Origin: a phage
Sequence record: PX946180.1
Reading direction: 5' to 3' (one strand)
DNA length: 38,310 nucleotides
How positions within the stretch are numbered: position 1 is the first letter of the stretch; every line of letters starts with the position of its first letter. Of this stretch, positions 1,510 through 38,310 are shown in pieces. The position numbers and the translations under genes were made by a program. The notes beneath the pieces were generated by a model, which saw only the letters and a program-made list of their open reading frames with translations, did not search any database and was not told where the DNA came from.

Positions 1510-1947
1510 ATGCTCAAACTTTTACGACAGGCCGTCCCTTGGCTGGTGGCAGGACTCCTGTTCTGCTCAGGTTACTGGGTGGCAGACAATAAGTGGGAGG
1601 CAAAGGTAAACGATGAATACATCACGAAACTTAAGGCACGAGAGAATCAACGGGCTGCTGTCCAAGGTGAAATCGACAAAGTGTCAGCAGAGTGGCAAGA
1701 CAAGATGTCCGCGCTGGAAGGCTCTACTGATAGGATTATTGCTGACCTTCAGTCTGACAATAAGCGGCTGCGCATCCGAGTCAACACCTCAGGTCTCACC
1801 GAGTCGGATATCAGTCGATGCTTCCCTAATGGTAGAGTCGAACTACACCCAGAAACTTCTAAAAGTCTTATCCGAATAACTCAGGAGGCAGACCTTAAGG
1901 AGAAGGCTCTTCAGGACACAATAAGGAGGCTTCAAGGTGTTAAGTGA
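1510..1947 (+). CDS. i-spanin Rz (T7 gp18.5-like)
   Basis: 145 aa; N-terminal TM segment followed by a charged coiled-coil region; position after small terminase. Confidence 0.8.
   Translation: MLKLLRQAVPWLVAGLLFCSGYWVADNKWEAKVNDEYITKLKARENQRAAVQGEIDKVSAEWQDKMSALEGSTDRIIADLQSDNKRLRIRVNTSGLTESDISRCFPNGRVELHPETSKSLIRITQEADLKEKALQDTIRRLQGVK
1613..1879 (+). CDS. o-spanin Rz1 embedded in the +1 frame of Rz (true start uncertain, probably internal)
   Basis: Embedded ORF with lipobox-like LTISGC followed by Pro/Ser-rich tail, typical of Rz1 lipoproteins; the first ~35 residues of the tracked ORF are probably not translated. Confidence 0.55.
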   Translation: MNTSRNLRHERINGLLSKVKSTKCQQSGKTRCPRWKALLIGLLLTFSLTISGCASESTPQVSPSRISVDASLMVESNYTQKLLKVLSE

Positions 1948-2374
1948 TTACTACAAAGTGGACCAGGCGAGTCCATCCGGTCTGGTCTCCGTTAGGACTG
2001 GAAAGCCTGTGGGGACGTTAAGTCGGATGGGATATTGGATAGTACAGACACGAAGTCTAGGCAGTAAGCGGGCACATCGCGTGATATGGGAACTAACCAA
2101 TGGTCCTATACCACATGGTATGCAAATAGACCACATCGACAGGAATCCCAGCAATAATACCTTAAGTAACTTACGGCTCGTTACTGCCGCTGAGAACACT
2201 TGGAATACTGGTAGCCATTATGACTCTAAGACAGGAGTGAAGTGCGTTACCCGTCACCAGAATGGTTATAGGATTCAGGTTAAACGCGGTAATGTCTATA
2301 TGCGAACAACACGTCCTACTTTAGAGGAGGCTATCTCTGTCCGGGACCTAATGCTGGAGGGACTCTATGTCTAA
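1937..2374 (+). CDS. HNH homing endonuclease (HNH_3 motif plus AP2-like DNA-binding region)
   Basis: 145 aa; motif [37 protein letters not shown]; overlaps Rz stop and large terminase start; T7 has no gene here. Confidence 0.85.
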
Positions 2375-4133
2375 GAAAACACCTGTTGAAAGACAGGCAG
2401 AAATGACCCAAAGGATGAGGGACGATTTCGTGTTCTTCATCTTCGTTCTCTGGAAAGCTCTTAGCCTTCCGGTTCCAACCCGCTGCCAGATAGATATGTG
2501 TAAGAAGCTGGCTGCTGGGGATAATCGCCGCTTCATCCTTCAGGCGTTCCGTGGTATTGGCAAGTCGTTTCTGACCTGTGGTTTCGTGGTCTGGAAACTA
2601 TGGAACAACCCAGACTTGAAGTTCATGATTGTGTCGGCCTCAAAGGAACGAGCCGATGCGAACTCCATCTTCATCAAGAGAATCATCGACCTCATGCCTC
2701 AGCTTCAGGAACTCAAACCTAAGCAGGGACAGCGAGATGCGGTTATCAGCTTCGACGTTGGGCCAGCCAAGCCAGACCACTCACCTTCTGTTAAGTCCGT
2801 TGGTATCACTGGTCAGTTGACTGGTAGTCGTGCTGACATACTGATTGCAGATGACGTGGAGGTTCCTAATAACTCTGCGACTCAGGCTGCACGAGACCGT
2901 CTGTCAGAGCTTGTGAAAGAGTTCGACGCTATCCTGAAGCCGGGAGGTACAATCATCTATCTGGGTACGCCTCAGAACGAGATGACCCTGTATCGTGAGC
3001 TGGAGGGTCGCGGCTATACGACGACTATCTGGCCTGCACGTTACCCTCGAGATAAGAAGGACTGGCAGTCTTACGGCGACCGTCTGGCTCCTATGCTTCA
3101 GGCAGAGCTGGAAGAGGACCCTGAATCCTTCTACTGGCGTCCGACCGATGAGGTACGATTCGATGATACGGACCTGAAGGAACGTGAGCTGTCCTATGGT
3201 AAGGCTGGCTTCGCGCTACAGTTCATGCTTAACCCGAACCTGAGTGATGCTGAGAAGTACCCTCTGAAGCTCCGTGACCTTATCGTAGCCGACTTGGACC
3301 CAGCGTCCAGCCCAATGGTCTACCAATGGTTGCCAAACCCTCAGAACAAGCGTGAGGACGTTCCTAACGTTGGACTCATGGGTGACTCATACCACACGTA
3401 TCAGACTGTAGGTTCTGCCTTCAGTTCGTACACCCAGAAGATTCTGGTCATTGACCCTAGTGGTCGTGGTAAGGATGAAACTGGTTATGCGGTACTGTAT
3501 CAGCTAAACGGCTACATCTTCGCTATGGAAGTTGGTGGTATGCGTGGTGGTTATGAAGACTCTACGCTGGAAGCCTTGGCTAAGATTGGTCGTAAGTGGA
3601 AGGTCAACGAATACGTCATTGAGGGTAACTTCGGTGATGGTATGTACCTTGAGCTATTCAAGCCTGTAGCGGCACGTATCCATCCTGCTGCTGTAACTGA
3701 AGTGAAGAGTAAGGGTCAGAAAGAACTCCGCATCTGTGACGTTCTGGAGCCTATCATGGGGTCTCACCGACTTATCGTTAACGCTTCTGCTATCGTCCAA
3801 GACTACCAGACAGCCTCTGATAAGGACGGCGTTCGTAACCCTATCTACTCTCTCTTCTACCAGATGACACGTATCTCTCGTGAACGTGGAGCCTTGGCAC
3901 ATGATGACCGACTTGATGCTCTGGCTATAGGTGTACAGTTCTTCGTTGAGTCTATGGCTAAGGATGCCAACAAAGGCGAACGTGAAGTCACTGAGGAGTG
4001 GCTGGAGGAACAGATGGAGAACCCACGGAAAGGCTTCGAGTCCATCCACACTGAGTTCTGGGACAATGGTGTCCGGGTAACTCACGATACGGGCGATGAG
4101 CTTGGGCTAGGGTCATACGTTACGTTCCACTAG
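2367..4133 (+). CDS. terminase large subunit (T7 gp19-like)
   Basis: 588 aa, collinear with recalled T7 gp19 (586 aa); Walker A-like GIGKS and nuclease region present. Confidence 0.95.
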
Positions 4134-4227
4134 CTGAATGAATAACTATAGGTGAAAGCTGCATGAATACGCAGTTAGTAACCTATAGTTACTACCAGTC
4201 TAACCTACTGTTTTACAAGGAGTTTGG

Positions 4228-4250
4228 ACTTAACTATCACTATAGGGAAG
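4228..4250 (+). promoter_or_regulatory. phage RNAP promoter (phiOR-like), +1 G at 4245
   Basis: TTAACTATCACTATAGGGAAG matches the window consensus; sits between terminase and the genome-end region as T7 phiOR does. Confidence 0.7.
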
Positions 4251-4430
4251 ACCCCCGGTTACTTATAGTATTACTGTAGTGAATATACATATGCAGACTT
4301 TATGCAAGACCTTAGGAGGCAGACTCCGAGTTCTTACCTAAGGCTTGCACCGATGGAAGGAGGGTGATATTAATCATAATCCCTCCAATACAGATAGTCA
4401 CCGACCATAGATACAGGAGGTATGTAGCAT

Positions 4431-4589
4431 ATGGCAAAGACCAAAGCTGTACTCAAAGCTCTGGCGACCAATCGAGCTACATACAGGTTTCTTGCTGCTG
4501 TTCTACTTGCTTCTGGCGTTACTGCTGGAAGTCAGTGGGTCGGGTGGGTCGAGACTCTCGTATGTTCTCTGGTGTCTCAGTGTAATTAA
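4431..4589 (+). CDS. small hypothetical membrane protein (gene 19.5 position)
   Basis: 52-aa ORF with AGGAGG 10 nt upstream and a hydrophobic core; below the 60-aa tracker threshold; preferred over the overlapping tracker ORF 4364..4585. Confidence 0.4.
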   Translation: MAKTKAVLKALATNRATYRFLAAVLLASGVTAGSQWVGWVETLVCSLVSQCN

Positions 4590-4865
4590 TGCAATCATGG
4601 TAACGATTCATGAAAGGAGGTAATATGATTGGTTATGGCGAAGGATGAAGAGCTAAGGTCAGTACGTGGATAAAGACTCACTCTACTGACCTTAGCTACT
4701 GTAGTCAAGGACTTTAGGTAACACCCTTCAGGCTCTCACTTCTGGTCTACCTACTGATTGGTTCACTGGTCGTCATCCGATGGCATTAGACCTACGGTCC
4801 TTGACCTACAGTAGCTGGCTCCTAAGGAGGGACGATGAGTTTTGGACCAAAAGTTTGAGACCACA

Positions 4866-5090
4866 TCTCACAGTTCAAGAACCTCAAGTCTCCCCATAGG
4901 CCCTCTTTCAGTCCAGACCAAAGGCCCTACCCCTAGACCTTCGGTCTAAACTTCAGGTCATTGACTCAAGGTCTACCCTAAGTCATGACGATAGGTCAGG
5001 GCTATGGCTGGTGGTCAGGACGATAGGTAGGGACTATGGGTCTTCTTTGAGTCTCTATCTGTATCAGACCTTGAGTCACTACCTACAGTC
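4866..5090 (+). repeat. candidate terminal-repeat (DTR) region of the linear genome, collapsed to one copy in this assembly; right boundary approximate
   Basis: Starts with TCTCACAG as the T7 left end does, followed by T7-like elements CCCCATAGG, ACCTTCGGT, CCCTAAG and GTCTCTATCTGTATCAG; comparison is from memory of the T7 terminal repeat. Confidence 0.35.
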
Positions 5091-5165
5091 TAACTACCTA
5101 CAGTATAACTACCTACAGTCATCAACCATCGGTAATGCCGCTACCTACAGTCAGAGACCTACAGT
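5077..5165 (+). repeat. short tandem repeat array (A)CTACCTACAGT(C), five copies
   Basis: Direct copies at about 5077, 5091, 5105, 5140 and 5155; analogous to the CCTAAAG-type repeat arrays just inside T7 genome ends. Confidence 0.7.
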
Positions 5166-5269
5166 TAATAGACACAAAGGATATAGACTTAAGGTCTAAG
5201 ACATGTTAGTCAAAGACTATAGCCTCTTACACCATGGGGTCGACGATAGCTTAATCGATATTATTTCAA

Positions 5270-5450
5270 ATTACCTATTGACTATAGGTCTAGACTATGG
5301 CTTAATAGCTTCCGTCAACACGACACGGCAACAACCGGATAGTGAAGACGCCGGGTCATCCCGGTTAAGTAGACAGCCTGATAAGTCGTACGAACAACAG
5401 GCAGATGACAGAAAGTAGTTGACAAGCAGTGACGATACGATGTAAGCTGT
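5270..5450 (+). promoter_or_regulatory. early host-RNAP promoter region (candidate sigma70 promoters, A1-A3 equivalents)
   Basis: TTGACT at 5278-5283 with possible -10 CTTAAT after 17 nt; TTGACA at 5419-5424 followed by TACGATGTA.CCACAT resembling T7 A3; region 5350-5400 resembles recalled T7 sequence CCGGATAAGTAGACAGCCTGATAAGTCG; exact -10 elements are ambiguous. Confidence 0.45.
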
Positions 5451-5636
5451 ACCACATCGAAACAACGGTGAAGACCAACACTGAAACGGTCTACCTGAAG
5501 TCTTCTGACTGAAGGGAATGCTCTTTAACAATCTGGATAACTCTTAATGTGCGCCGATAGCGACTAACTACAGGGTCTTTGAGTCTACACCTGAAGGCCC
5601 TGACTGATAGTCACTAACAACTGAGAGGATATAACT

Positions 5637-6143
5637 ATGGAACGTAACGCTAACGCATACTATGACCTGCTGGCTGCAACCGTTAAAGCATTTAACGAAC
5701 GTATTCGGTCCGACGAAATAGCTGAAGGTGATGACTACCACGATGCGCTGCATGAAGTCGTAGACGGTCAGGTTCCGCTCTATTACCACGAGATTTTTAC
5801 GGTGATGGCTGCTGATGGCATAGACCACGAGTTCGAAGACTCTGGGCTGATGCCTGAGACCAAGGACGTAACGCGCATACTGCAAGCTCGCATCTATGAG
5901 GCACTGTATAACGACGTGTCTAATAGCTCGGATGTGGTCTGGTTTGAGGCTGAAGAGAGCGACGAAGGGGATAAGTATTGGGTAGTTGACGCTAAAACGG
6001 GACTATTCGTTGAGCAAGCTGTACCTCTTGAGGTCGCTATTGCATCTGCCAAAGACCTCTATGCGGTAGGTCATCACATGAAAGTCGAAGACATTAACGA
6101 TAACGTAGTGTTCGACCCTGCGGCTGAAGAGGACTGCGAGTGA
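5637..6143 (+). CDS. ocr: Ocr-like anti-restriction DNA mimic (gene 0.3) with extra ~65-aa C-terminal extension
   Basis: 168 aa; VPLYYHEIFTVMAADGIDHEFEDSGLMPETKDVTRILQARIYE closely matches recalled T7 Ocr core; first gene after the early promoter region. Confidence 0.85.
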   Translation: MERNANAYYDLLAATVKAFNERIRSDEIAEGDDYHDALHEVVDGQVPLYYHEIFTVMAADGIDHEFEDSGLMPETKDVTRILQARIYEALYNDVSNSSDVVWFEAEESDEGDKYWVVDAKTGLFVEQAVPLEVAIASAKDLYAVGHHMKVEDINDNVVFDPAAEEDCE

Positions 6144-6301
6144 TGGTAACTTATGGTCTCTGCCAGCATCACGTCACCAACGCCCGGCTTATGGTCAAGA
6201 CCGGGCAATTAAACCACGATGCGACTATGCGTCACCTGAAAGTGGTCTACGAGGGCCGCAAGTGCATACACGACAGTGAGGACAAGCCAAATGATAACTG
6301 A
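6143..6301 (+). CDS. hypothetical early protein (52 aa)
   Basis: ATG overlaps the Ocr stop (TGATGG); uninterrupted 52-codon ORF; no recognised homolog. Confidence 0.4.
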   Translation: MVTYGLCQHHVTNARLMVKTGQLNHDATMRHLKVVYEGRKCIHDSEDKPNDN

Positions 6302-6464
6302 AGGTTCAATCATAGAGTATCGTTGTGAACAAGGTTATAACCTGAAAGGTAAGGTGTCTCAGGTCTATACTTCAGTAACAGGTAAGCGCTGCGTGGAGCT
6401 GACAAGTGGTGTGCGGATAGGTCTACATGAATGTAGGCTGCTGAATAAGCCAAGAACTGAGTGA
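6291..6464 (+). CDS. hypothetical early protein (57 aa; tracker ORF 6276..6464 trimmed to internal ATG)
   Basis: ORF in tracker list; GAGG about 10 nt upstream of ATG 6291; overlaps previous ORF. Confidence 0.4.
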   Translation: MITEGSIIEYRCEQGYNLKGKVSQVYTSVTGKRCVELTSGVRIGLHECRLLNKPRTE

Positions 6465-6467
6465 TAG

Positions 6468-6506
6468 ACGAGAGGTCATCGACTGATAGGTGGCCTCAAA
6501 GATTAC
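6468..6506 (+). promoter_or_regulatory. R1.1-like RNase III element (R0.5 position)
   Basis: GAGGTCATCGACTGATAGGTGGCCTCAAAGATTA, a diverged copy of the motif at 1423/9884/17126. Confidence 0.4.
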
Positions 6507-6530
6507 CACTTACATTGATAGGAGTTAACT

Positions 6531-6698
6531 ATGAAATTTACAGTCATCGCGCTTTACGTCACCATCATTCTGTCTTGGCTGACTGCGGTCATAGCCGATG
6601 GGAATGCACTACGCCTTGGTTGGCTGGCAGTTGATATCATATTCTCTCCGGCAGGGGTAGTGAGGGGCATCTTGATGTGGTTTGGATTGGCGGGATAA
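6531..6698 (+). CDS. small hydrophobic early protein (55 aa)
   Basis: GGAG RBS 7 nt upstream; sequence MKFTVIALYVTIILSWLTAVIA.. is predicted membrane-spanning. Confidence 0.5.
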   Translation: MKFTVIALYVTIILSWLTAVIADGNALRLGWLAVDIIFSPAGVVRGILMWFGLAG

Positions 6699-6701
6699 AC
6701 T

Positions 6702-6899
6702 ATGAGTCTTGCACTATTGATAGCCATAGGCTATGGACTTATCGCCTACGTGCTGGTGAGAGACATCAACAAAGCGCGTAAAGTCTACAACTTCAATTAT
6801 GTACGCCTGGGCCGCTGGACTGTGCGTCAACCTAACGGGCGTTTCATGCGCAACCTCGCGAACGTCTGGGATATAGCAACTCTTGGGAGCAAACTGTAA
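6702..6899 (+). CDS. small hydrophobic early protein (65 aa)
   Basis: Tracker ORF; N-terminal TM segment MSLALLIAIGYGLIAYVLV; tightly packed with neighbours. Confidence 0.5.
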   Translation: MSLALLIAIGYGLIAYVLVRDINKARKVYNFNYVRLGRWTVRQPNGRFMRNLANVWDIATLGSKL

Positions 6900-7159
6900 T
6901 GAAAACCGTATACACACACAAACCATCAAGCCGCAGCCGCATGGAACAAGCGCAGCGTGATATGTTCTTACAACGCCGCATGAGAGCTGAGGGCCATAAG
7001 TCCGAACTGATGTGTCTGGCGTATGGTGGACGACCAATCACTGACGATGGTAAACTTCTGGTCTCAGGCTGGAAGGCGATAGACCAACGGTCAACCATCA
7101 AGCACACGACCGAAGGAGACTTCAGCCATCTACACGCTAACCCTCTGATATGCAAGTAA
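6899..7159 (+). CDS. hypothetical early protein (86 aa)
   Basis: Tracker ORF; start overlaps previous stop; occupies the position where T7 has gene 0.7 but shows no kinase similarity. Confidence 0.5.
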   Translation: MKTVYTHKPSSRSRMEQAQRDMFLQRRMRAEGHKSELMCLAYGGRPITDDGKLLVSGWKAIDQRSTIKHTTEGDFSHLHANPLICK

Positions 7160-7164
7160 TTATG

Positions 7165-7187
7165 ACTTAACTATCACTATAGGACTC
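7165..7187 (+). promoter_or_regulatory. phage RNAP promoter directly upstream of the RNAP gene, +1 G at 7182
   Basis: TTAACTATCACTATAGGACTC; followed by GACTCAAGGTC motif. Confidence 0.65.
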
Positions 7188-7256
7188 AAGGTCTAAGACT
7201 CAAAGTGAAAGACCAAAGAGACTTTAAGTGAAAGACTAATAACAAGGACTTTAAGT

Positions 7257-9104
7257 ATGAGCGTCATCTCTATTGACAAACACGACTTCTCTGATGTGTC
7301 GAACGCCATTGAGCCGTTTAACCTGCTGGCTGACCACTACGGGCAAGACCTCGCAGTAAAGCAGCTTCAGCTTGAGCATGAGGCATACACTGAAGGCGAG
7401 CGACGTTTCATCAAGAACCTTGAGCGCCAGACTGAGCGCGGGGAACTGGCAGACAATCAGGTCGCCAAGCCTTTGATGCAGACTCTGGTCCCGACCATCG
7501 CTAAGGCTTTCCGTGAGTGGCATGAAGGCCCGGACGGTAAGTCCTCGACCTCTCGTCCAAGCGTAGCGTTCACCATGCTGAGCACTGACGAGAAGGCTGT
7601 CAAAGACCGCTCTCTGCTCATCTCTGCGGAGTCTGCTGCGGTCATCATACTGAAGGTCATTCTCAGCAAGCTGGTCAAGCCTGAAGGCATCCCGATAACT
7701 CCTATGGCGTCCGCGATAGGTCGAACACTGGAAGATGAAATCCGCTTTGGTCGCATCCGTGATCAGGAGAAGGAGCACTTCAAGAAGGCGATAGCTGAGA
7801 ACCTGAACAAGCGCGCAGGGGTATCCTACAAGAAAGCCTACATGCAAGCGGTTGAGACCTCCATGTTGGAGCAAGGCCAACTGGAAGATGCCTGGGGAAC
7901 TTGGAGTCCGACCGAGGCGGTCCATGTTGGCATCAAGATGCTTGAGATTGTCATCCAGTCTACTCAACTGGTAGAGCTTAAGCGTTATGGTGCTGGCAAT
8001 GCAGCGGCGGACGTTGAGATGGTCCACCTGTCAGACTTCTGGGTCAAGAAGATGGCTCAGCGTGGCTTCTCTCTTGCGGGAATCGCTCCAGTCTACCAGC
8101 CATGCGTAGTTCCGCCTAAGCCGTGGACCGGGGTGGTGGGTGGTGGGTACTGGGCTAAAGGCCGAAGACCACTACCACTGATTCGCTTAGGGTCTAAGTC
8201 TGCGGTGGCACGTTACGAAGATGTATACATGCCTGAAGTCTACGACGCTGTGAATATCATTCAGAATACACCTTGGAAAGTGAACAAGAAGGTTCTGAAC
8301 GTGGTGAACATGGTCGAGAAGCTGAACAACACGCCTATTGATGACATCCCTCAGATGGAACCGCTGAAGCCTGAGGACTATGCGGGTGAGACTGAAGAAG
8401 AACTTAAGGCATGGAAGAAAGCTGCTGCCGGTATCTATCGCCGCGAGAAGGCCCGACAGTCACGAAGATTGTCACTGAGCTTTATCGTTAACCAAGCGAA
8501 CAAGTTCTCTCAGTTCAAGGCTATCTGGTTCCCGTATAACATGGATTGGCGAGGTCGTGTCTACGCTGTCCCGATGTTCAACCCTCAGGGTAACGACATG
8601 CAAAAGGGACTCCTGACTCTGGCAGTCGGTAAGCCTATTGGTGCTGATGGTTTCAAATGGCTGAAGGTACGCAAGAAGGATACCACTCGTCTGAACCTGA
8701 TGTTCTTAGGGTCATTCAACCTTCAGCCTACAGTCAACAAAGGCGCGAAGAAAGAGCTTGACAAACACAAGCAGGAGTCAGGTATTAGCCCGAACTTCGT
8801 CCACTCACAAGATGGCAGTCACCTCCGCAAGACTGTAGTCCACACGCACCGCAAGTATGGCGTGATGTCGTTCGCAGTGATCCACGATAGCTTCGGGACC
8901 ATCCCGGCTGACGCTGAGTATCTGTTCCGTGGTGTCCGTGAGACGATGGTCGAGACCTACCGCGACAACGATGTGCTGCTTGACTTCTATGAGCAGTTTG
9001 AATACCAGCTTCATGAGAGCCAGCGCGACAAGCTGCCAGAGCTTCCGAAGAAAGGTGAACTGAATATCGAAGACATCCTGTCTTCAGACTTTGCATTCGC
9101 TTAA
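7257..9104 (+). CDS. T7-like single-subunit RNA polymerase with ~268-codon internal in-frame deletion (catalytic motifs A and B missing; probably non-functional)
   Basis: 615 aa versus 883 aa for T7 RNAP; N-terminal ~464 aa and C-terminal ~151 aa are collinear with T7 (promoter-binding domain, specificity loop, HKQESG..FVHSQDGSHLRK, IHDSFGT, terminal FAFA); junction GFKWLK/VRKKDTTRLNLMFLG at about 8664-8669; no DGSCSG or TLAYGS motif anywhere in the ORF. Confidence 0.85.
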   Translation: MSVISIDKHDFSDVSNAIEPFNLLADHYGQDLAVKQLQLEHEAYTEGERRFIKNLERQTERGELADNQVAKPLMQTLVPTIAKAFREWHEGPDGKSSTSRPSVAFTMLSTDEKAVKDRSLLISAESAAVIILKVILSKLVKPEGIPITPMASAIGRTLEDEIRFGRIRDQEKEHFKKAIAENLNKRAGVSYKKAYMQAVETSMLEQGQLEDAWGTWSPTEAVHVGIKMLEIVIQSTQLVELKRYGAGNAAADVEMVHLSDFWVKKMAQRGFSLAGIAPVYQPCVVPPKPWTGVVGGGYWAKGRRPLPLIRLGSKSAVARYEDVYMPEVYDAVNIIQNTPWKVNKKVLNVVNMVEKLNNTPIDDIPQMEPLKPEDYAGETEEELKAWKKAAAGIYRREKARQSRRLSLSFIVNQANKFSQFKAIWFPYNMDWRGRVYAVPMFNPQGNDMQKGLLTLAVGKPIGADGFKWLKVRKKDTTRLNLMFLGSFNLQPTVNKGAKKELDKHKQESGISPNFVHSQDGSHLRKTVVHTHRKYGVMSFAVIHDSFGTIPADAEYLFRGVRETMVETYRDNDVLLDFYEQFEYQLHESQRDKLPELPKKGELNIEDILSSDFAFA

Positions 9105-9116
9105 CAGGAGAGAGTT

Positions 9117-9317
9117 ATGAAATTTGTACACAAGAAGACCGGCGTTAATGGTGGGACTCAAATAGTGACCGTAACAGAGCACAATGGTAAGGGTCTGGTG
9201 AAGACCACGGTCATCCCTACAGAGCTGTCAAAGCGTCTTAACGTAACATTCAAGTGGCTGGTTAATCTGGTTAAGCAGACACACGAGCAAGCTCTTAAAG
9301 AGGAGGCTACCAAATGA
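9117..9317 (+). CDS. hypothetical early protein (66 aa)
   Basis: Tracker ORF with GGAGAGAG RBS; no recognised homolog; T7 has no gene between gene 1 and 1.1. Confidence 0.5.
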   Translation: MKFVHKKTGVNGGTQIVTVTEHNGKGLVKTTVIPTELSKRLNVTFKWLVNLVKQTHEQALKEEATK

Positions 9318-11472: not shown

Positions 11473-11483
11473 CTAAACGTCAA

Positions 11484-11520
11484 CCCAGTGGTCTTCGGAC
11501 TGCTGGGTTTCTTTGCTTTG
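11484..11520 (+). terminator. rho-independent terminator, T7 TE equivalent
   Basis: 10-bp stem CCCAGTGGTC/GACTGCTGGG (two G-U pairs) with TTCG tetraloop followed by TTTCTTTGCTTTG; located just after the ligase gene as T7 TE is. Confidence 0.8.
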
Positions 11521-36691: not shown

Positions 36692-38310
36692 ATGTCCACG
36701 ATTACACAATTCCCTTCAGGAAACACTCAGTACAGGATTGAGTTCGACTACCTAGCCAGAACGTTTATTGTTGTTACGCTGGTGAATAGCTCTAACCCTA
36801 CCCTGAACCGTGTACTGGAAGTTGGTCGAGATTACCGATTCCTTAATCCAACGATGCTTGAGATGTTGGTTGACCAATCAGGTTTCGACATCGTTCGTAT
36901 TCACCGTCAGACTGGAACTGACTTAGTGGTAGACTTCAGGAATGGCTCAGTGTTGACAGCTAGTGACCTGACCAATGCAGAGCTTCAGGCTATCCATATT
37001 GCAGAAGAAGGTCGAGACCAAACTGTTGACTTAGCGAAGGAATATGCCGATGCTGCTGGTAACTCTGCTGGCAACGCTAAGGACAGCGAGGACGAAGCAC
37101 GCCGAATCGCTGAGAGTATCAAGGCAGCTGGTCTAACTGGCTATATTACCCGTAGATCCTTCGAGAAAGGCTTCAACGTTACAACATGGAACGAGGTCCT
37201 GCTATGGGAGGATGATGGTGAATATTACCGCTGGGATGGTACGCTCCCAAAGAACGTTCCTGCTGGCTCAACTCCTGAATCATCTGGTGGAATTGGATTA
37301 GGAGCGTGGGTTAGTGTTGGTGATGCATCGCTGAGATCTCAGATAGCCTCCGTAACCGGATTTAATCTTGTAGGTCAGGTGCCAGATGTAACTACATTAC
37401 GCAATACAGAACCGACAACAGACAGCAAGAGAATCCTCCTTCGCGAATACACAGCAGGCACAGGATATGGTGGCGGTCAGTTACGAGCAATCCTTGACGG
37501 AAGCTCTTACGTTGACAACGGCGTTACTGTGTTTAAAACAACTGGTGGTGCTGCATGGGTCCGCGTTAACGCAGATATCATTACATCCTTCATGGCGGGT
37601 GCTGTGCCTGATGCAGGTACTACTGATAACACGGCTGCTATTAATCGCTTCCTCGCCGCAGGTAAGAAATTGGTTATGAGGGATGGTATCTTTGGTCATT
37701 CTGGTCAAATTTCTTTGCAAACAGGTATATCTCTTGATTTATCTGGAGCGACAATAAAACCATCATCGACTCTACTCACCGCTGCTTGGGTGGGGAGCAA
37801 CTTGTTTGATGTAAAAATAACCGGCGGCGTGTTTGAAGGAACTGGCTTGGACAATACAGCTGGCAACGGCCATCTTTTGCTGCTTTCTAATTGCCAAGGG
37901 TGCTACGTAGATGGCACTACATTTACGAAATCTCCGCAGGATGGATTGCGATTTGTATCTTGTACACGATGTATTGCGAGTAACGCTATTTCGTACAACA
38001 ACCTTTCTGTAGGTATTCAAGACCGCGATGGGGATTACAACACTATCATTGGGTGTAAATGTAACGGTAATGGTAATACAGGAACGGTTGCTGGAGTTGG
38101 TGGTCGAGGTATTCTCACATGGCGTAGCTTTGGCACAAAAGTTATCGCCTGTGACGCGTTCAATAACACAGAGTATGGCATTCGGGCATATTCGCAAGCA
38201 GGAGATTCCAGAGGTTCGACTCAAATCCTGATTAGTGATTGCCACACCGGCGATAACACTAAGATTGATATTTACGTGTACAACGAAATCGGAAGCCTGT
38301 CTGAGATACT
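36692..38310 (+). CDS. tail fiber/tailspike, 5' part (T7 gp17-like N-terminal adaptor plus start of beta-helix domain); continues at 1..857
   Basis: ATG 36692 with AAGGAGG RBS; N-terminal ~150 aa resemble the recalled T7 gp17 tail-attachment domain (FDYLAR.F.VVTL, DYRF, LV.DF..GS.L.A.DL, HIAEE.RD); frame stays open to the window end and continues at position 1; total about 782 aa. Confidence 0.9.
   Translation, partial: MSTITQFPSGNTQYRIEFDYLARTFIVVTLVNSSNPTLNRVLEVGRDYRFLNPTMLEMLVDQSGFDIVRIHRQTGTDLVVDFRNGSVLTASDLTNAELQAIHIAEEGRDQTVDLAKEYADAAGNSAGNAKDSEDEARRIAESIKAAGLTGYITRRSFEKGFNVTTWNEVLLWEDDGEYYRWDGTLPKNVPAGSTPESSGGIGLGAWVSVGDASLRSQIASVTGFNLVGQVPDVTTLRNTEPTTDSKRILLREYTAGTGYGGGQLRAILDGSSYVDNGVTVFKTTGGAAWVRVNADIITSFMAGAVPDAGTTDNTAAINRFLAAGKKLVMRDGIFGHSGQISLQTGISLDLSGATIKPSSTLLTAAWVGSNLFDVKITGGVFEGTGLDNTAGNGHLLLLSNCQGCYVDGTTFTKSPQDGLRFVSCTRCIASNAISYNNLSVGIQDRDGDYNTIIGCKCNGNGNTGTVAGVGGRGILTWRSFGTKVIACDAFNNTEYGIRAYSQAGDSRGSTQILISDCHTGDNTKIDIYVYNEIGSLSEI
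38184..38310 (+). repeat. assembly overlap: exact copy of positions 1-127 (circular contig artifact)
   Basis: Direct comparison: 38184-38310 is identical to 1-127 and lies inside the tail fiber coding sequence. Confidence 0.9.

Follow-up and report, generated by a model that had tools for sequence, protein, structure and literature searches.

The interval spanning positions 6143 to 7159 is the kind of early (class I) region, made up of accessory genes, that K1F-type Kayfunaviruses ordinarily carry, and the absence of a gene 0.7 kinase from it is a trait of the lineage. The interval lies in sequence record PX946180.1, whose full 38,310 nucleotides (hereafter the window) are a circularly closed, K1F-like Kayfunavirus genome. 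DNA identity to K1F and to many other Kayfunavirus records is 88–92% across most of the region. An initial annotation had drawn attention to five small open reading frames (ORFs) of 52, 57, 55, 65 and 86 amino acids in this interval, where T7 encodes a protein kinase and host shut-off factor. All five are present on the + strand within the interval (Table 1) and are genuine genes, but their arrangement is already known and not unusual. The observation is therefore correct yet ordinary, because these genes are the usual early accessory set of K1F-like phages. We estimate a probability of roughly 0.85 for this explanation as a whole, including the kinase absence as a lineage trait and the roles proposed below for individual ORFs.

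Table 1 Features of the early block and its flanks, with positions in the window
Feature	Position	Strand	Size	Description
Candidate host sigma-70 early promoter, TTGACA-N18-TAAGCT	5419..5448	+		Upstream of ocr; consensus pattern match and sequence reading
ocr (gp0.3)	5637..6143	+	168 aa	Anti-restriction DNA mimic; left edge of block
ORF1	6143-6301	+	52 aa from ATG	K1F gp0.35 orthologue; T7 gp0.4 homologue
Inserted cassette	6277..6457	+		Approximate extent; hypervariable slot at 3′ end of gp0.4-like gene
ORF2	6291-6464	+	57 aa from ATG	Accessory cassette gene
Conserved hairpin	6458..6512	+		Sequence homologue of T7 RNase III site R0.5; shared blocks and fold
ORF3	6531-6698	+	55 aa	Hydrophobic; K1F gp0.36 orthologue; T7 gene 0.5 position
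ORF4	6702-6899	+	65 aa	Predicted N-terminal membrane anchor; K1F gp0.37 orthologue; '0.6' in other records
ORF5	6899-7159	+	86 aa	Soluble basic protein; K1F gp0.38 orthologue
Phage-RNAP promoter motif TTAACTATCACTATAGGAC	7166..7184	+		Between ORF5 and gene 1; right edge of block
Intrinsic terminator	11482..11519	+		Just 3′ of ligase gene, T7 TE position; 12-bp stem, 6 GC pairs, T-rich tail

Pooled pN/pS values calculated against homologous loci are 0.31, 0.11, 0.19, 0.27 and 0.33 for ORF1 to ORF5, respectively, with ocr providing a comparison value of 0.24. These values show that all five ORFs are under purifying selection. Each ORF also matches a PHROG family of its own (E values from 6e-8 to 1e-43), and the starts are preceded by AGGAG- or GAGGA-type Shine–Dalgarno sequences or exhibit stop/start coupling. 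Specifically, a single base is shared at the ocr/ORF1 junction (TGATG) and at the ORF4/ORF5 junction (TAATG), ORF1 and ORF2 overlap by 11 nt, and ORF3 and ORF4 are separated by 3 nt, whereas the 66-nt spacer between ORF2 and ORF3 contains a conserved hairpin.

The idea that some or all of these ORFs are spurious frames in a non-coding leader is hardly credible. The ORFs are very short, ORF2 is missing from most relatives, and Pfam and NCBIfam scans of all five yielded nothing significant (the Pfam release used lacks PF26807 and PF27024). However, such frames would not be expected to combine low pN/pS values, start signals and a PHROG family for every ORF, nor to include a protein such as ORF2, whose fold is predicted confidently and is conserved in unrelated phages. 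A GTG-initiated ORF at 6461-6634, which overlaps both the hairpin and ORF3 and matches phrog_36394, exhibits a pN/pS of 0.87 and was rejected as coding.

The same layout is found in Escherichia phage K1F (AM084414 and DQ111067), where gp0.3, gp0.35, gp0.36, gp0.37, gp0.38 and gp1 occur in the order, orientation and spacing seen in the window. Protein identities to K1F are 78% for ORF1, 84% for ORF3, 95% for ORF4 and 87% for ORF5, and both genomes have an R0.5-like hairpin, a promoter before gene 1 and no kinase. The window differs by one additional gene: a cassette gene encoding 57 aa is inserted at the 3′ end of gp0.35, in a slot that is empty in K1F. This gene is also present in Salmonella phages of the PRF-SP1, STP-SP and CRW-SP series and in a Logan contig (SRR34217579_111525, called L046), all of which match the window in the order of their ocr, gp0.4-like, 57-, 55- and 65-aa genes. 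Indeed, the 57-aa protein of the window is 96.5% identical to that of the PRF-SP1-type phages and L046. In L046 the 86-aa gene comes next, as it does in the window, although its RNA polymerase is full length (893 aa), unlike that of the window. PRF-SP1 differs in having an additional 185-aa ORF, a 108-aa form of gp0.38, and a gp0.4-like gene of 55 aa in which the window is short of 9 nt. These related early regions reveal a normal K1F-type layout (gp0.35–0.38 in K1F and the first four ORFs in PRF-SP1) in which the small ORFs do not stand in for the kinase, contrary to what the word 'instead' in the initial annotation implies.

The T7 early region (0.3, 0.4, R0.5, 0.5, 0.6, 0.7, R1 and 1) provides a collinear framework for this comparison. 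Its ocr, gp0.4 and R0.5 are homologous to their equivalents in the window, and in both genomes a small hydrophobic peptide is encoded after R0.5. In contrast, T7 0.5 and 0.6 are unrelated in sequence to the window ORFs in those positions, gp0.7 is absent from the window, and ORF5 has no T7 counterpart.

The absence of the kinase was upheld on re-examination, which found no kinase domain. A tblastn search of the window with T7 gp0.7 gave a best E value of 8.6, a profile HMM constructed from 23 homologues of the T7 kinase gave a best E value of 6.9 against all six frames of the whole window, and no kinase PHROG (phrog_2828) is among the matches of the five ORFs. The Pfam release used here lacks PF27024 (Phage_T7_kinase), and T7 gp0.7 itself goes unrecognised by it. 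A kinase was found in none of 14 Kayfunavirus-like loci, and phages of the K1F-like lineage that lack the T7 kinase have long been known.

Although the kinase is lacking, the accompanying claim that small ORFs are present instead of it does not hold, as T7 itself has a homologue of ORF1, gp0.4, and the 65- and 86-aa genes occur together with a kinase elsewhere. It is improbable that the small ORFs, especially those for the two membrane proteins, have taken over the host shut-off role of a lost kinase or act in superinfection exclusion. This proposal would fit the location of the ORFs, which lie between ocr and gene 1 as gene 0.7 does in T7, and the prediction that two products are membrane proteins. 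It could also draw on the basic character and helical N terminus of ORF5, which loosely resemble the basic shut-off domain of gp0.7. However, a 244-aa kinase is encoded together with ORF4 and ORF5 homologues in Dev2, IMM-002 and the locus L045, and a kinase likewise coexists with 65- and 86-aa genes in L037, which resembles Citrobacter phage CR8. These two genes are therefore not kinase substitutes, and the T7 counterpart of ORF1 coexists with gp0.7 as well. We also rejected ORF5 as a detached C-terminal shut-off (DNA-binding) domain of gp0.7, given that hhalign profiles of the gp0.38 family and of 19 shut-off-domain sequences matched with a probability of only 0.8%. With regard to exclusion, no known exclusion protein was matched in PHROGs, Pfam or NCBIfam, but exclusion proteins do not constitute one sequence family, and thus the missing homology decides nothing; the present data neither favour nor oppose the exclusion or takeover role initially suggested for the membrane proteins.

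Phages of the Dev2 and IMM-002 type, which belong to the same genus according to the taxonomy lines of their records, carry ORF4 (80–84%) and ORF5 homologues directly upstream of gene 1. In these phages, a kinase-only gp0.7 homologue and a 0.3 gene of the S-AdoMet-lyase type replace ocr, the gp0.4-like gene and the 55-aa peptide. A missing kinase is characteristic of the lineage whose early region combines Ocr with gp0.4 (K1F type), and it does not reflect a replacement event in this genome.

Sequence homology identifies ORF1 as a gp0.4-family peptide. BLASTP aligns it to T7 gp0.4 with modest similarity (39% over 41 aa, pairwise E value of 2e-6), and there are reciprocal PHROG cross-matches involving phrog_5058, phrog_7202 and phrog_25044, wherein ORF1 matches phrog_7202 at 1.7e-4 and T7 gp0.4 matches phrog_5058 at 9e-5. 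Precomputed matches to PF26807 (Phage_T7_GP04) exist for the L046 orthologue, which is roughly 90% identical to ORF1, and for L047, whereas BLASTP produced no alignment between ORF1 and the CR8-like gp0.4 homologue. ORF1 also has the layout characteristic of gp0.4, being about 50 aa long, located directly after gene 0.3 with a stop/start overlap, and upstream of an R0.5 homologue. In T7, nt 1278 belongs to both gene 0.3 and gene 0.4, and the same 1-nt overlap occurs in the window at 6143. An alternative GTG start at 6140 would extend ORF1 to 53 aa.

T7 gp0.4 is an FtsZ inhibitor that blocks Z-ring assembly and cell division, and it is carried by T7 alongside gp0.7. By analogy, we infer that ORF1 most probably halts division in the same manner, through binding to FtsZ. 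Infection by K1F has been reported to cause FtsZ mislocalization and a block in division (PMC9372555).

The conserved hairpin between the gp0.4-like region and ORF3 is a putative RNase III site. Like its T7 homologue R0.5, it is irregular and resides between gene 0.4 and the next gene. Sequence blocks CUGAGUGAUAGAC...GGUC...GUGGCCU...GAUUAcCACUU match T7 positions 1427-1480, between genes 0.4 and 0.5. The structure has a predicted minimum free energy of -19.6 kcal/mol, with a z score of -4.5 in the window versus -3.0 in T7, and it is nearly invariant in 14 relatives despite differing flanking cassettes. An Rfam scan of positions 4100-9200, which include the hairpin, returned no match.

A hypervariable cassette slot adjoins the hairpin just upstream. 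The left boundary of the cassette (...CTGAG/GA, where the slash marks the junction) provides a Shine–Dalgarno sequence, and the right boundary is CTGAG/TGATAGAC. Comparison of the window with 17 relatives shows 6 empty slots and 12 with an insert, which is 25 to 560 nt long and lies between the same boundary sequences in every case. Insertion of the cassette remodelled the 3′ end of ORF1. The slot holds different genes in different relatives, and ORF2, a predicted small β-barrel protein, is part of the mobile cassette found here. Records of the Kayfunavirus type that contain ORF2 number 23, and roughly 47 distant copies occur in unrelated phages, but it is missing from K1F, EPr2, pO91 and 11 IMG/VR loci, and its family comprises only 9 clusters in 5.8e9 proteins.

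AlphaFold2 predicts a five-stranded SH3/Tudor/Sm-like β-barrel for ORF2 (pLDDT 84.6), in which Cys12, Cys34 and Cys48 are conserved and His46 is near-invariant. The UniRef name 'Sushi domain-containing protein' is unsupported, as the weak Pfam Sushi match (E value of 0.037) falls below the cut-off. The most likely role of ORF2 is a strain-specific one, in either host takeover or counter-defence. A more specific proposal, that ORF2 inhibits a host RNA-binding or termination factor and represents the functionally important novelty of this genome, is very improbable. Its fold-level matches do include YaeO/Rof (6jie_A, TMq 0.56), Hfq and Sm proteins, and virulent phages that are unrelated to one another exchange the gene, a behaviour often seen in genes for counter-defence or takeover. 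However, all matches in the PDB are at the fold level only, with E values of at least 0.04 and identities of 8–26%, and Tudor, BirA C-terminal and phage neck domains score as well as YaeO, Hfq and Sm proteins. The equal scores of such unlike proteins mean that the fold class alone is supported. Furthermore, the closest BFVD structures are all uncharacterised phage proteins.

The 55- and 65-aa products had been described as membrane-spanning, and a hydropathy check bears this out, with one strong predicted transmembrane segment in each. This check used the Kyte–Doolittle and Hessa scales, and the same two scales revealed no strong segment in ORF1, ORF2 or ORF5. The segment of ORF3 encompasses residues 3-21 (Kyte–Doolittle 19-mer mean of 2.28, summed Hessa dGapp of -1.7), and a second hydrophobic stretch is marginal. 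ORF3 matches phrog_7319 (E value of 7e-24) and has an AGGAG sequence 7 nt before its ATG. It was found in five fetched relatives (K1F, L010, L013, L046 and JSS1/L049), and its presence in PRF-SP1 was judged from ORF size and position, whereas other relatives have different hydrophobic peptides of 29–41 aa in its place. ORF3 shares position and hydrophobicity with T7 gp0.5 (phrog_16572), with no BLASTP or PHROG cross-match between them. It is predicted to be a small inner-membrane peptide and is a positional analogue of T7 0.5.

In ORF4, which matches phrog_2385 (E value of 3e-32), the transmembrane segment is formed by residues 1-19 (Kyte–Doolittle 2.32, Hessa -1.26). The remaining tail is very basic and highly conserved, with a pI of 11.0 and a net charge of +8 for the whole protein, and is predicted to face the cytoplasm because of the positive-inside rule. 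This family is present in 216 phage records and in essentially all Kayfunaviruses, and has distant homologues in Klebsiella T7-like phages; homologues of 38–45% are located upstream of the kinase in Klebsiella-phage-like loci. T7 gp0.6 is an inhibitor of MreB. Despite the '0.6' label given to ORF4 homologues in DQ111067, Dev2 and IMM-002, neither BLASTP nor PHROG searches matched ORF4 to T7 0.6A or gp0.6 (phrog_8393). ORF4 is a positional analogue of T7 0.6 without a sequence relationship.

ORF5 matches phrog_7066 (E value of 1e-43) and is confined to Kayfunaviruses and close relatives. Its 136 clusters are all unnamed or hypothetical and reside mostly on contigs of about 40 kb. An exhaustive profile search recovered only 13 representative clusters in 1.84e9 proteins, all of 57–122 aa, and thus none of the remote gp0.38 homologues is long enough for an added domain. 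The C-terminal sequence HTTxGDFSHLHANPLICK is invariant. An AlphaFold2 model based on 28 sequences has a pLDDT of 55 and therefore offers no usable fold.

ORF5 is nearly always co-inherited with ORF4, and its start overlaps the ORF4 stop in an arrangement indicative of translational coupling. From this coupling and co-inheritance, we would guess that the two proteins act jointly on a host target. Two broader proposals are that ORF4 and ORF5 form a conserved two-protein host-takeover module with an uncharacterised target, and that ORF2 is a portable counter-defence protein or host-factor inhibitor that passes from one virulent phage to another, unrelated one by way of a dedicated CTGAG-bounded slot. 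Taken jointly, these two assignments are doubtful.

As a discovery, this region matters little, as it is annotated without a kinase in the K1F GenBank records and in more than 200 related phage records. The analysis is of use for annotation, in that ORF1 can be labelled as a gp0.4-family putative FtsZ inhibitor, the hairpin as a putative R0.5-type RNase III site and the 57-aa gene as a mobile cassette. K1F and its relatives are a phage group used in therapy research, and four conserved early proteins there have no assigned function. Our literature search uncovered no expression or functional data on these proteins for any Kayfunavirus, and no paper that mentions gp0.36–0.38. Recent work (PMC13645617) showed that the T7 kinase disarms many bacterial defences, and thus the small ORFs of kinase-less relatives are a natural place in which to seek alternative counter-defence genes.

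On the left side of the block, ocr matches PF08684 (E value of 1.2e-29) and phrog_2568 and is 52% identical to T7 gp0.3. The candidate promoter upstream is one that we take to resemble T7 A3, and a simple promoter scan yielded sites no more numerous than those in shuffled sequence. On the right side, the phage promoter sequence ACTATCACTATAGG has 8 exact occurrences, all on the + strand, and allowing up to three mismatches gives 12 matches versus 3.3 expected by chance. The motif before gene 1 is kept in K1F, EPr2 and pO91, whereas T7 annotation lists no phage promoter there. Such a promoter directly upstream of gene 1 means that regulation is not identical to that of T7. The region before gene 1 also lacks a significant fold (z score of -0.98), and thus no R1-type site is claimed there.

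By analogy with T7, the five ORFs, which lie between ocr and the phage RNA polymerase gene, are presumably carried on one polycistronic early RNA that the host RNA polymerase makes within the first few minutes after infection. RNase III would process this RNA at the hairpin homologous to R0.5, and stop/start coupling would account for part of its translation. The early unit holding the five ORFs would run from host-type promoters ahead of ocr to the terminator that follows the ligase gene.

The oddest feature of the window lies outside the five-ORF block and concerns the RNA polymerase gene. Its deletion junction was not found in IMG/VR or JGI metagenome contigs, and the deletion itself is in frame, spans 834 nt and removes the catalytic core.

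All five small open reading frames that the initial annotation placed at 6143–7159 were found with the boundaries and lengths it gave. Chance does not account for these frames. Codon-wise comparison with homologous loci reveals purifying selection on ORF1 to ORF5, with pooled pN/pS values of 0.31, 0.11, 0.19, 0.27 and 0.33, respectively; the values are 0.24 for ocr and 0.87 for an overlapping GTG frame (6461–6634). Single-base overlaps join ocr to ORF1 and ORF4 to ORF5, ORF1 and ORF2 overlap by 11 nt, and gaps of 66 nt and 3 nt precede ORF3 and ORF4. The starts either follow a GAGGA or AGGAG motif or are coupled to the preceding stop. Each ORF matches its own PHROG of unknown function.

Features of the early region and other loci in the window
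Feature	Position	Strand	Description
145-aa ORF	1937–2374		between Rz/Rz1 and large terminase genes
Candidate early promoter	5419		A3-like, TTGACA-N18-TAAGCT, upstream of ocr
ocr	5637–6143		168 aa
ORF1	6143–6301	+	52 aa
ORF2	6291–6464	+	57 aa
Hairpin	6458–6512		intergenic
ORF3	6531–6698	+	55 aa
ORF4	6702–6899	+	65 aa
ORF5	6899–7159	+	86 aa
Phage-promoter motif	7166–7184	+	full TTAACTATCACTATAGGAC, directly upstream of RNA polymerase gene
Leader	7185–7256		
RNA polymerase gene	7257–9104		615 aa
Terminator	11482		just after ligase gene

The identity and orthology of the five genes are clear. A megablast search with 5600–7300 matched 237 phage records, with Escherichia phage K1F and other Kayfunavirus on top (88–92% identity over most of the query), and K1F is collinear with the window across the whole genome at 79–98% identity. 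In K1F, the interval from ocr to gene 1 is annotated with gp0.35 (49 aa), gp0.36 (55 aa), gp0.37 (65 aa) and gp0.38 (86 aa), in the same order as ORF1 (78% identity), ORF3 (84%), ORF4 (95%) and ORF5 (87%); ORF2 is the sole part of the block missing there. The feature is thus already known, as K1F records annotate these genes and the same order is deposited for many phages.

No kinase is encoded anywhere in the window, and the initial annotation was right on this: re-examination with T7 gp0.7 by tblastn (best E 8.6) and with a 23-homologue T7-kinase profile against all six frames (best E 6.9) found none. However, the proposal that the small ORFs are present instead of the kinase does not hold, so the initial annotation was correct in its observation and only partly right in its interpretation. 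Kayfunavirus, by the records' own taxonomy, comprises two kinds of early region. In the K1F type, ocr is accompanied by a gp0.4-like gene and no kinase is present (14 of 14 Kayfunavirus-like loci compared), whereas phages of the Dev2/IMM-002 type carry a gene 0.3 of the S-AdoMet-lyase type together with a 244-aa, kinase-only homologue of gp0.7. Searching with the kinase of a Dev2-type locus recovered the latter in about 46 phage records at 80–90% identity; the two that were checked, Dev2 and IMM-002, carry this genus name. In both early-region types, gene 1 is immediately preceded by homologues of ORF4 and ORF5, and a Citrobacter phage CR8-like locus has a gp0.4 homologue, the kinase, ORF4 and ORF5 all together. 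The five ORFs therefore did not replace the kinase. A separate idea, that gp0.38 is a detached gp0.7 shut-off domain, was excluded by profile comparison (probability 0.8%).

ORF1 and T7 gp0.4 are homologous. The two share 39% identity over 41 residues (BLASTP, pairwise E 2e-6), have reciprocal PHROG matches plus a third PHROG common to both, and each start on the final base of the stop codon of gene 0.3. An orthologue roughly 90% identical to ORF1, in the closely related Logan contig SRR34217579_111525, has a precomputed match to Pfam PF26807 ('Phage_T7_GP04'). Direct Pfam scans were empty because the version used lacks PF26807 and PF27024. T7 gp0.4 inhibits FtsZ (Kiro et al. 2013, cited in PMC9372555), and infection by K1F is reported to cause FtsZ mislocalisation and a block of cell division (PMC9372555). 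ORF1 probably inhibits FtsZ as well.

The intergenic hairpin is homologous in sequence to the T7 region between genes 0.4 and 0.5, which holds the RNase III processing site R0.5 (RNase III sites are not listed in the T7 record itself). Both contain the blocks CUGAGUGAUAGAC, GGUC, GUGGCCU and GAUUAYCACUU and adopt the same irregular hairpin fold (z of -4.5 in the window and -3.0 in T7), and the hairpin is nearly invariant in 14 relatives despite differing flanking genes. RNase III would process the transcript at this putative site. With a gp0.4 homologue, an R0.5-type hairpin and a hydrophobic peptide in succession, the block is collinear with T7: 0.3, 0.4, R0.5, a small hydrophobic peptide in the 0.5 slot, a '0.6' slot and gene 1.

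Hydrophobicity analysis on two scales supports the description of the 55-aa and 65-aa products as membrane proteins. ORF3 has one strong transmembrane segment (residues 3–21), as does ORF4 (residues 1–19), followed by a strongly basic tail that would be cytoplasmic by the positive-inside rule; no comparable segment was found in ORF1, ORF2 or ORF5. ORF3 is present in only a minority of relatives, and different hydrophobic peptides of 29–41 aa occupy its slot in others. T7 gp0.5 resembles ORF3 in position and hydrophobicity, but not in sequence. ORF4 occurs in 216 phage records. In Klebsiella-phage-like loci, homologues with 38–45% identity precede the kinase gene and retain the N-terminal hydrophobic segment, RD-x-x-K-x-x-KV and TVR-x-PNGRF.

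Alignment of 17 relatives with the window reveals that ORF2 is a cassette in a hypervariable slot where the gp0.4-like gene ends. Six sequences have an empty slot (...GCTGAG/TGATAGAC, the slash marking the junction), and 12 carry inserts of 25 to 560 nt between ...CTGAG/GA, which provides a Shine-Dalgarno sequence, and CTGAG/TGATAGAC. The ORF2 protein is rare (nine clusters among 5.8 billion proteins) and is deposited in 23 Kayfunavirus-type records, 20 of them Salmonella phages of the PRF-SP/STP-SP/CRW-SP series at 96.5% identity; PRF-SP1, the member inspected, has the ORF order of the window. Unrelated phages, among them the 87-kb phage mistaenkt, have copies that are about 50% identical. 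AlphaFold2 predicts a confident five-stranded small beta-barrel (pLDDT 84.6). In the PDB it matches generic barrels (Tudor, Sm, Hfq, YaeO and BirA-C) with E of at least 0.04, so the model supports an assignment to fold class only.

ORF5 belongs to a narrow family: there are 136 clusters at 90% identity, but a set of 1.84 billion proteins holds only 13 representatives at 50%. The His-rich C terminus does not vary, and the structure prediction cannot be relied on (pLDDT 55). Relatives have a further variable slot between the gp0.37 and gp0.38 genes, holding a 185-aa ORF in PRF-SP1 (1652–2209 of that locus) and an endonuclease VII-annotated gene in IMM-002 (2720–3142); gp0.38 is also seen with N-terminal extensions (108, 130 and 139 aa).

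Host RNA polymerase would transcribe the block early, from promoters upstream of ocr to the terminator after the ligase gene. ORF2 to ORF5 are early accessory genes, probably host-directed, and coupling and co-inheritance suggest a joint role for ORF4 and ORF5. Our literature search found no mention of gp0.36–0.38.

The most notable feature of the window lies outside the block, in an internally deleted RNA polymerase gene. Relative to the 894-aa K1F product, an in-frame deletion removes 834 nt (278 codons) at a junction near 8670 with 3 nt of microhomology (TAC). No counterpart of T7 RNA polymerase residues ~463–730, which include catalytic Asp537 and the O-helix, was found anywhere in the window. 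With this stretch missing, the polymerase should have no activity, and the phage should not be able to express its middle and late genes by itself. The deletion occurs in 0 of 217 related phage records (the Logan relative encodes 893 aa), and its junction was found neither in IMG/VR nor in JGI metagenome contigs. The identical 127 nt at both ends (1–127 and 38184–38310) indicate a circularly closed assembly of ~38.18 kb (~38,183 unique bases), and the overlap length suggests that the assembler used a de Bruijn graph at k = 127. A graph artefact at this k cannot account for a microhomology of 3 nt; the likely explanations are a deletion variant that depends on a helper, a chimeric read path or an engineered genome.

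The promoter motif before this gene is conserved in K1F, EPr2 and pO91 and includes one of eight exact copies of ACTATCACTATAGG in the window, all on the + strand. T7 annotation, in contrast, lists no phage promoter before gene 1, which suggests that the polymerase of Kayfunaviruses positively regulates its own gene. The leader contains a repeated AAGTGAAAGAC(C/T)AA motif (7201–7214 and 7225–7238), also conserved in K1F, EPr2 and pO91. Its fold is not significant (z -0.98), so no equivalent of the T7 RNase III site R1 is evident.

Gene content and order are T7-like and permuted, the window opening inside the tail-fibre gene and running through its 3′ end, holin, Rz/Rz1, terminase, the genome ends, ocr and the RNA polymerase gene. 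The 145-aa ORF has an HNH-type motif by eye and no match in an NCBIfam scan; as K1F has no sequence aligned to 1789–2415, it is probably a homing-endonuclease insertion. The ocr product is longer than that of T7 (117 aa), with a C-terminal extension of ~55 residues common to K1F; many relatives lack the extension, their matches ending at about residue 103–112. The tail-fibre gene (37344–38310 and 1–857) matches K1F only in its N-terminal part. Since the remainder, including 93–857, does not align to the K1F endosialidase, the phage probably recognises a surface polysaccharide different from that of K1F.
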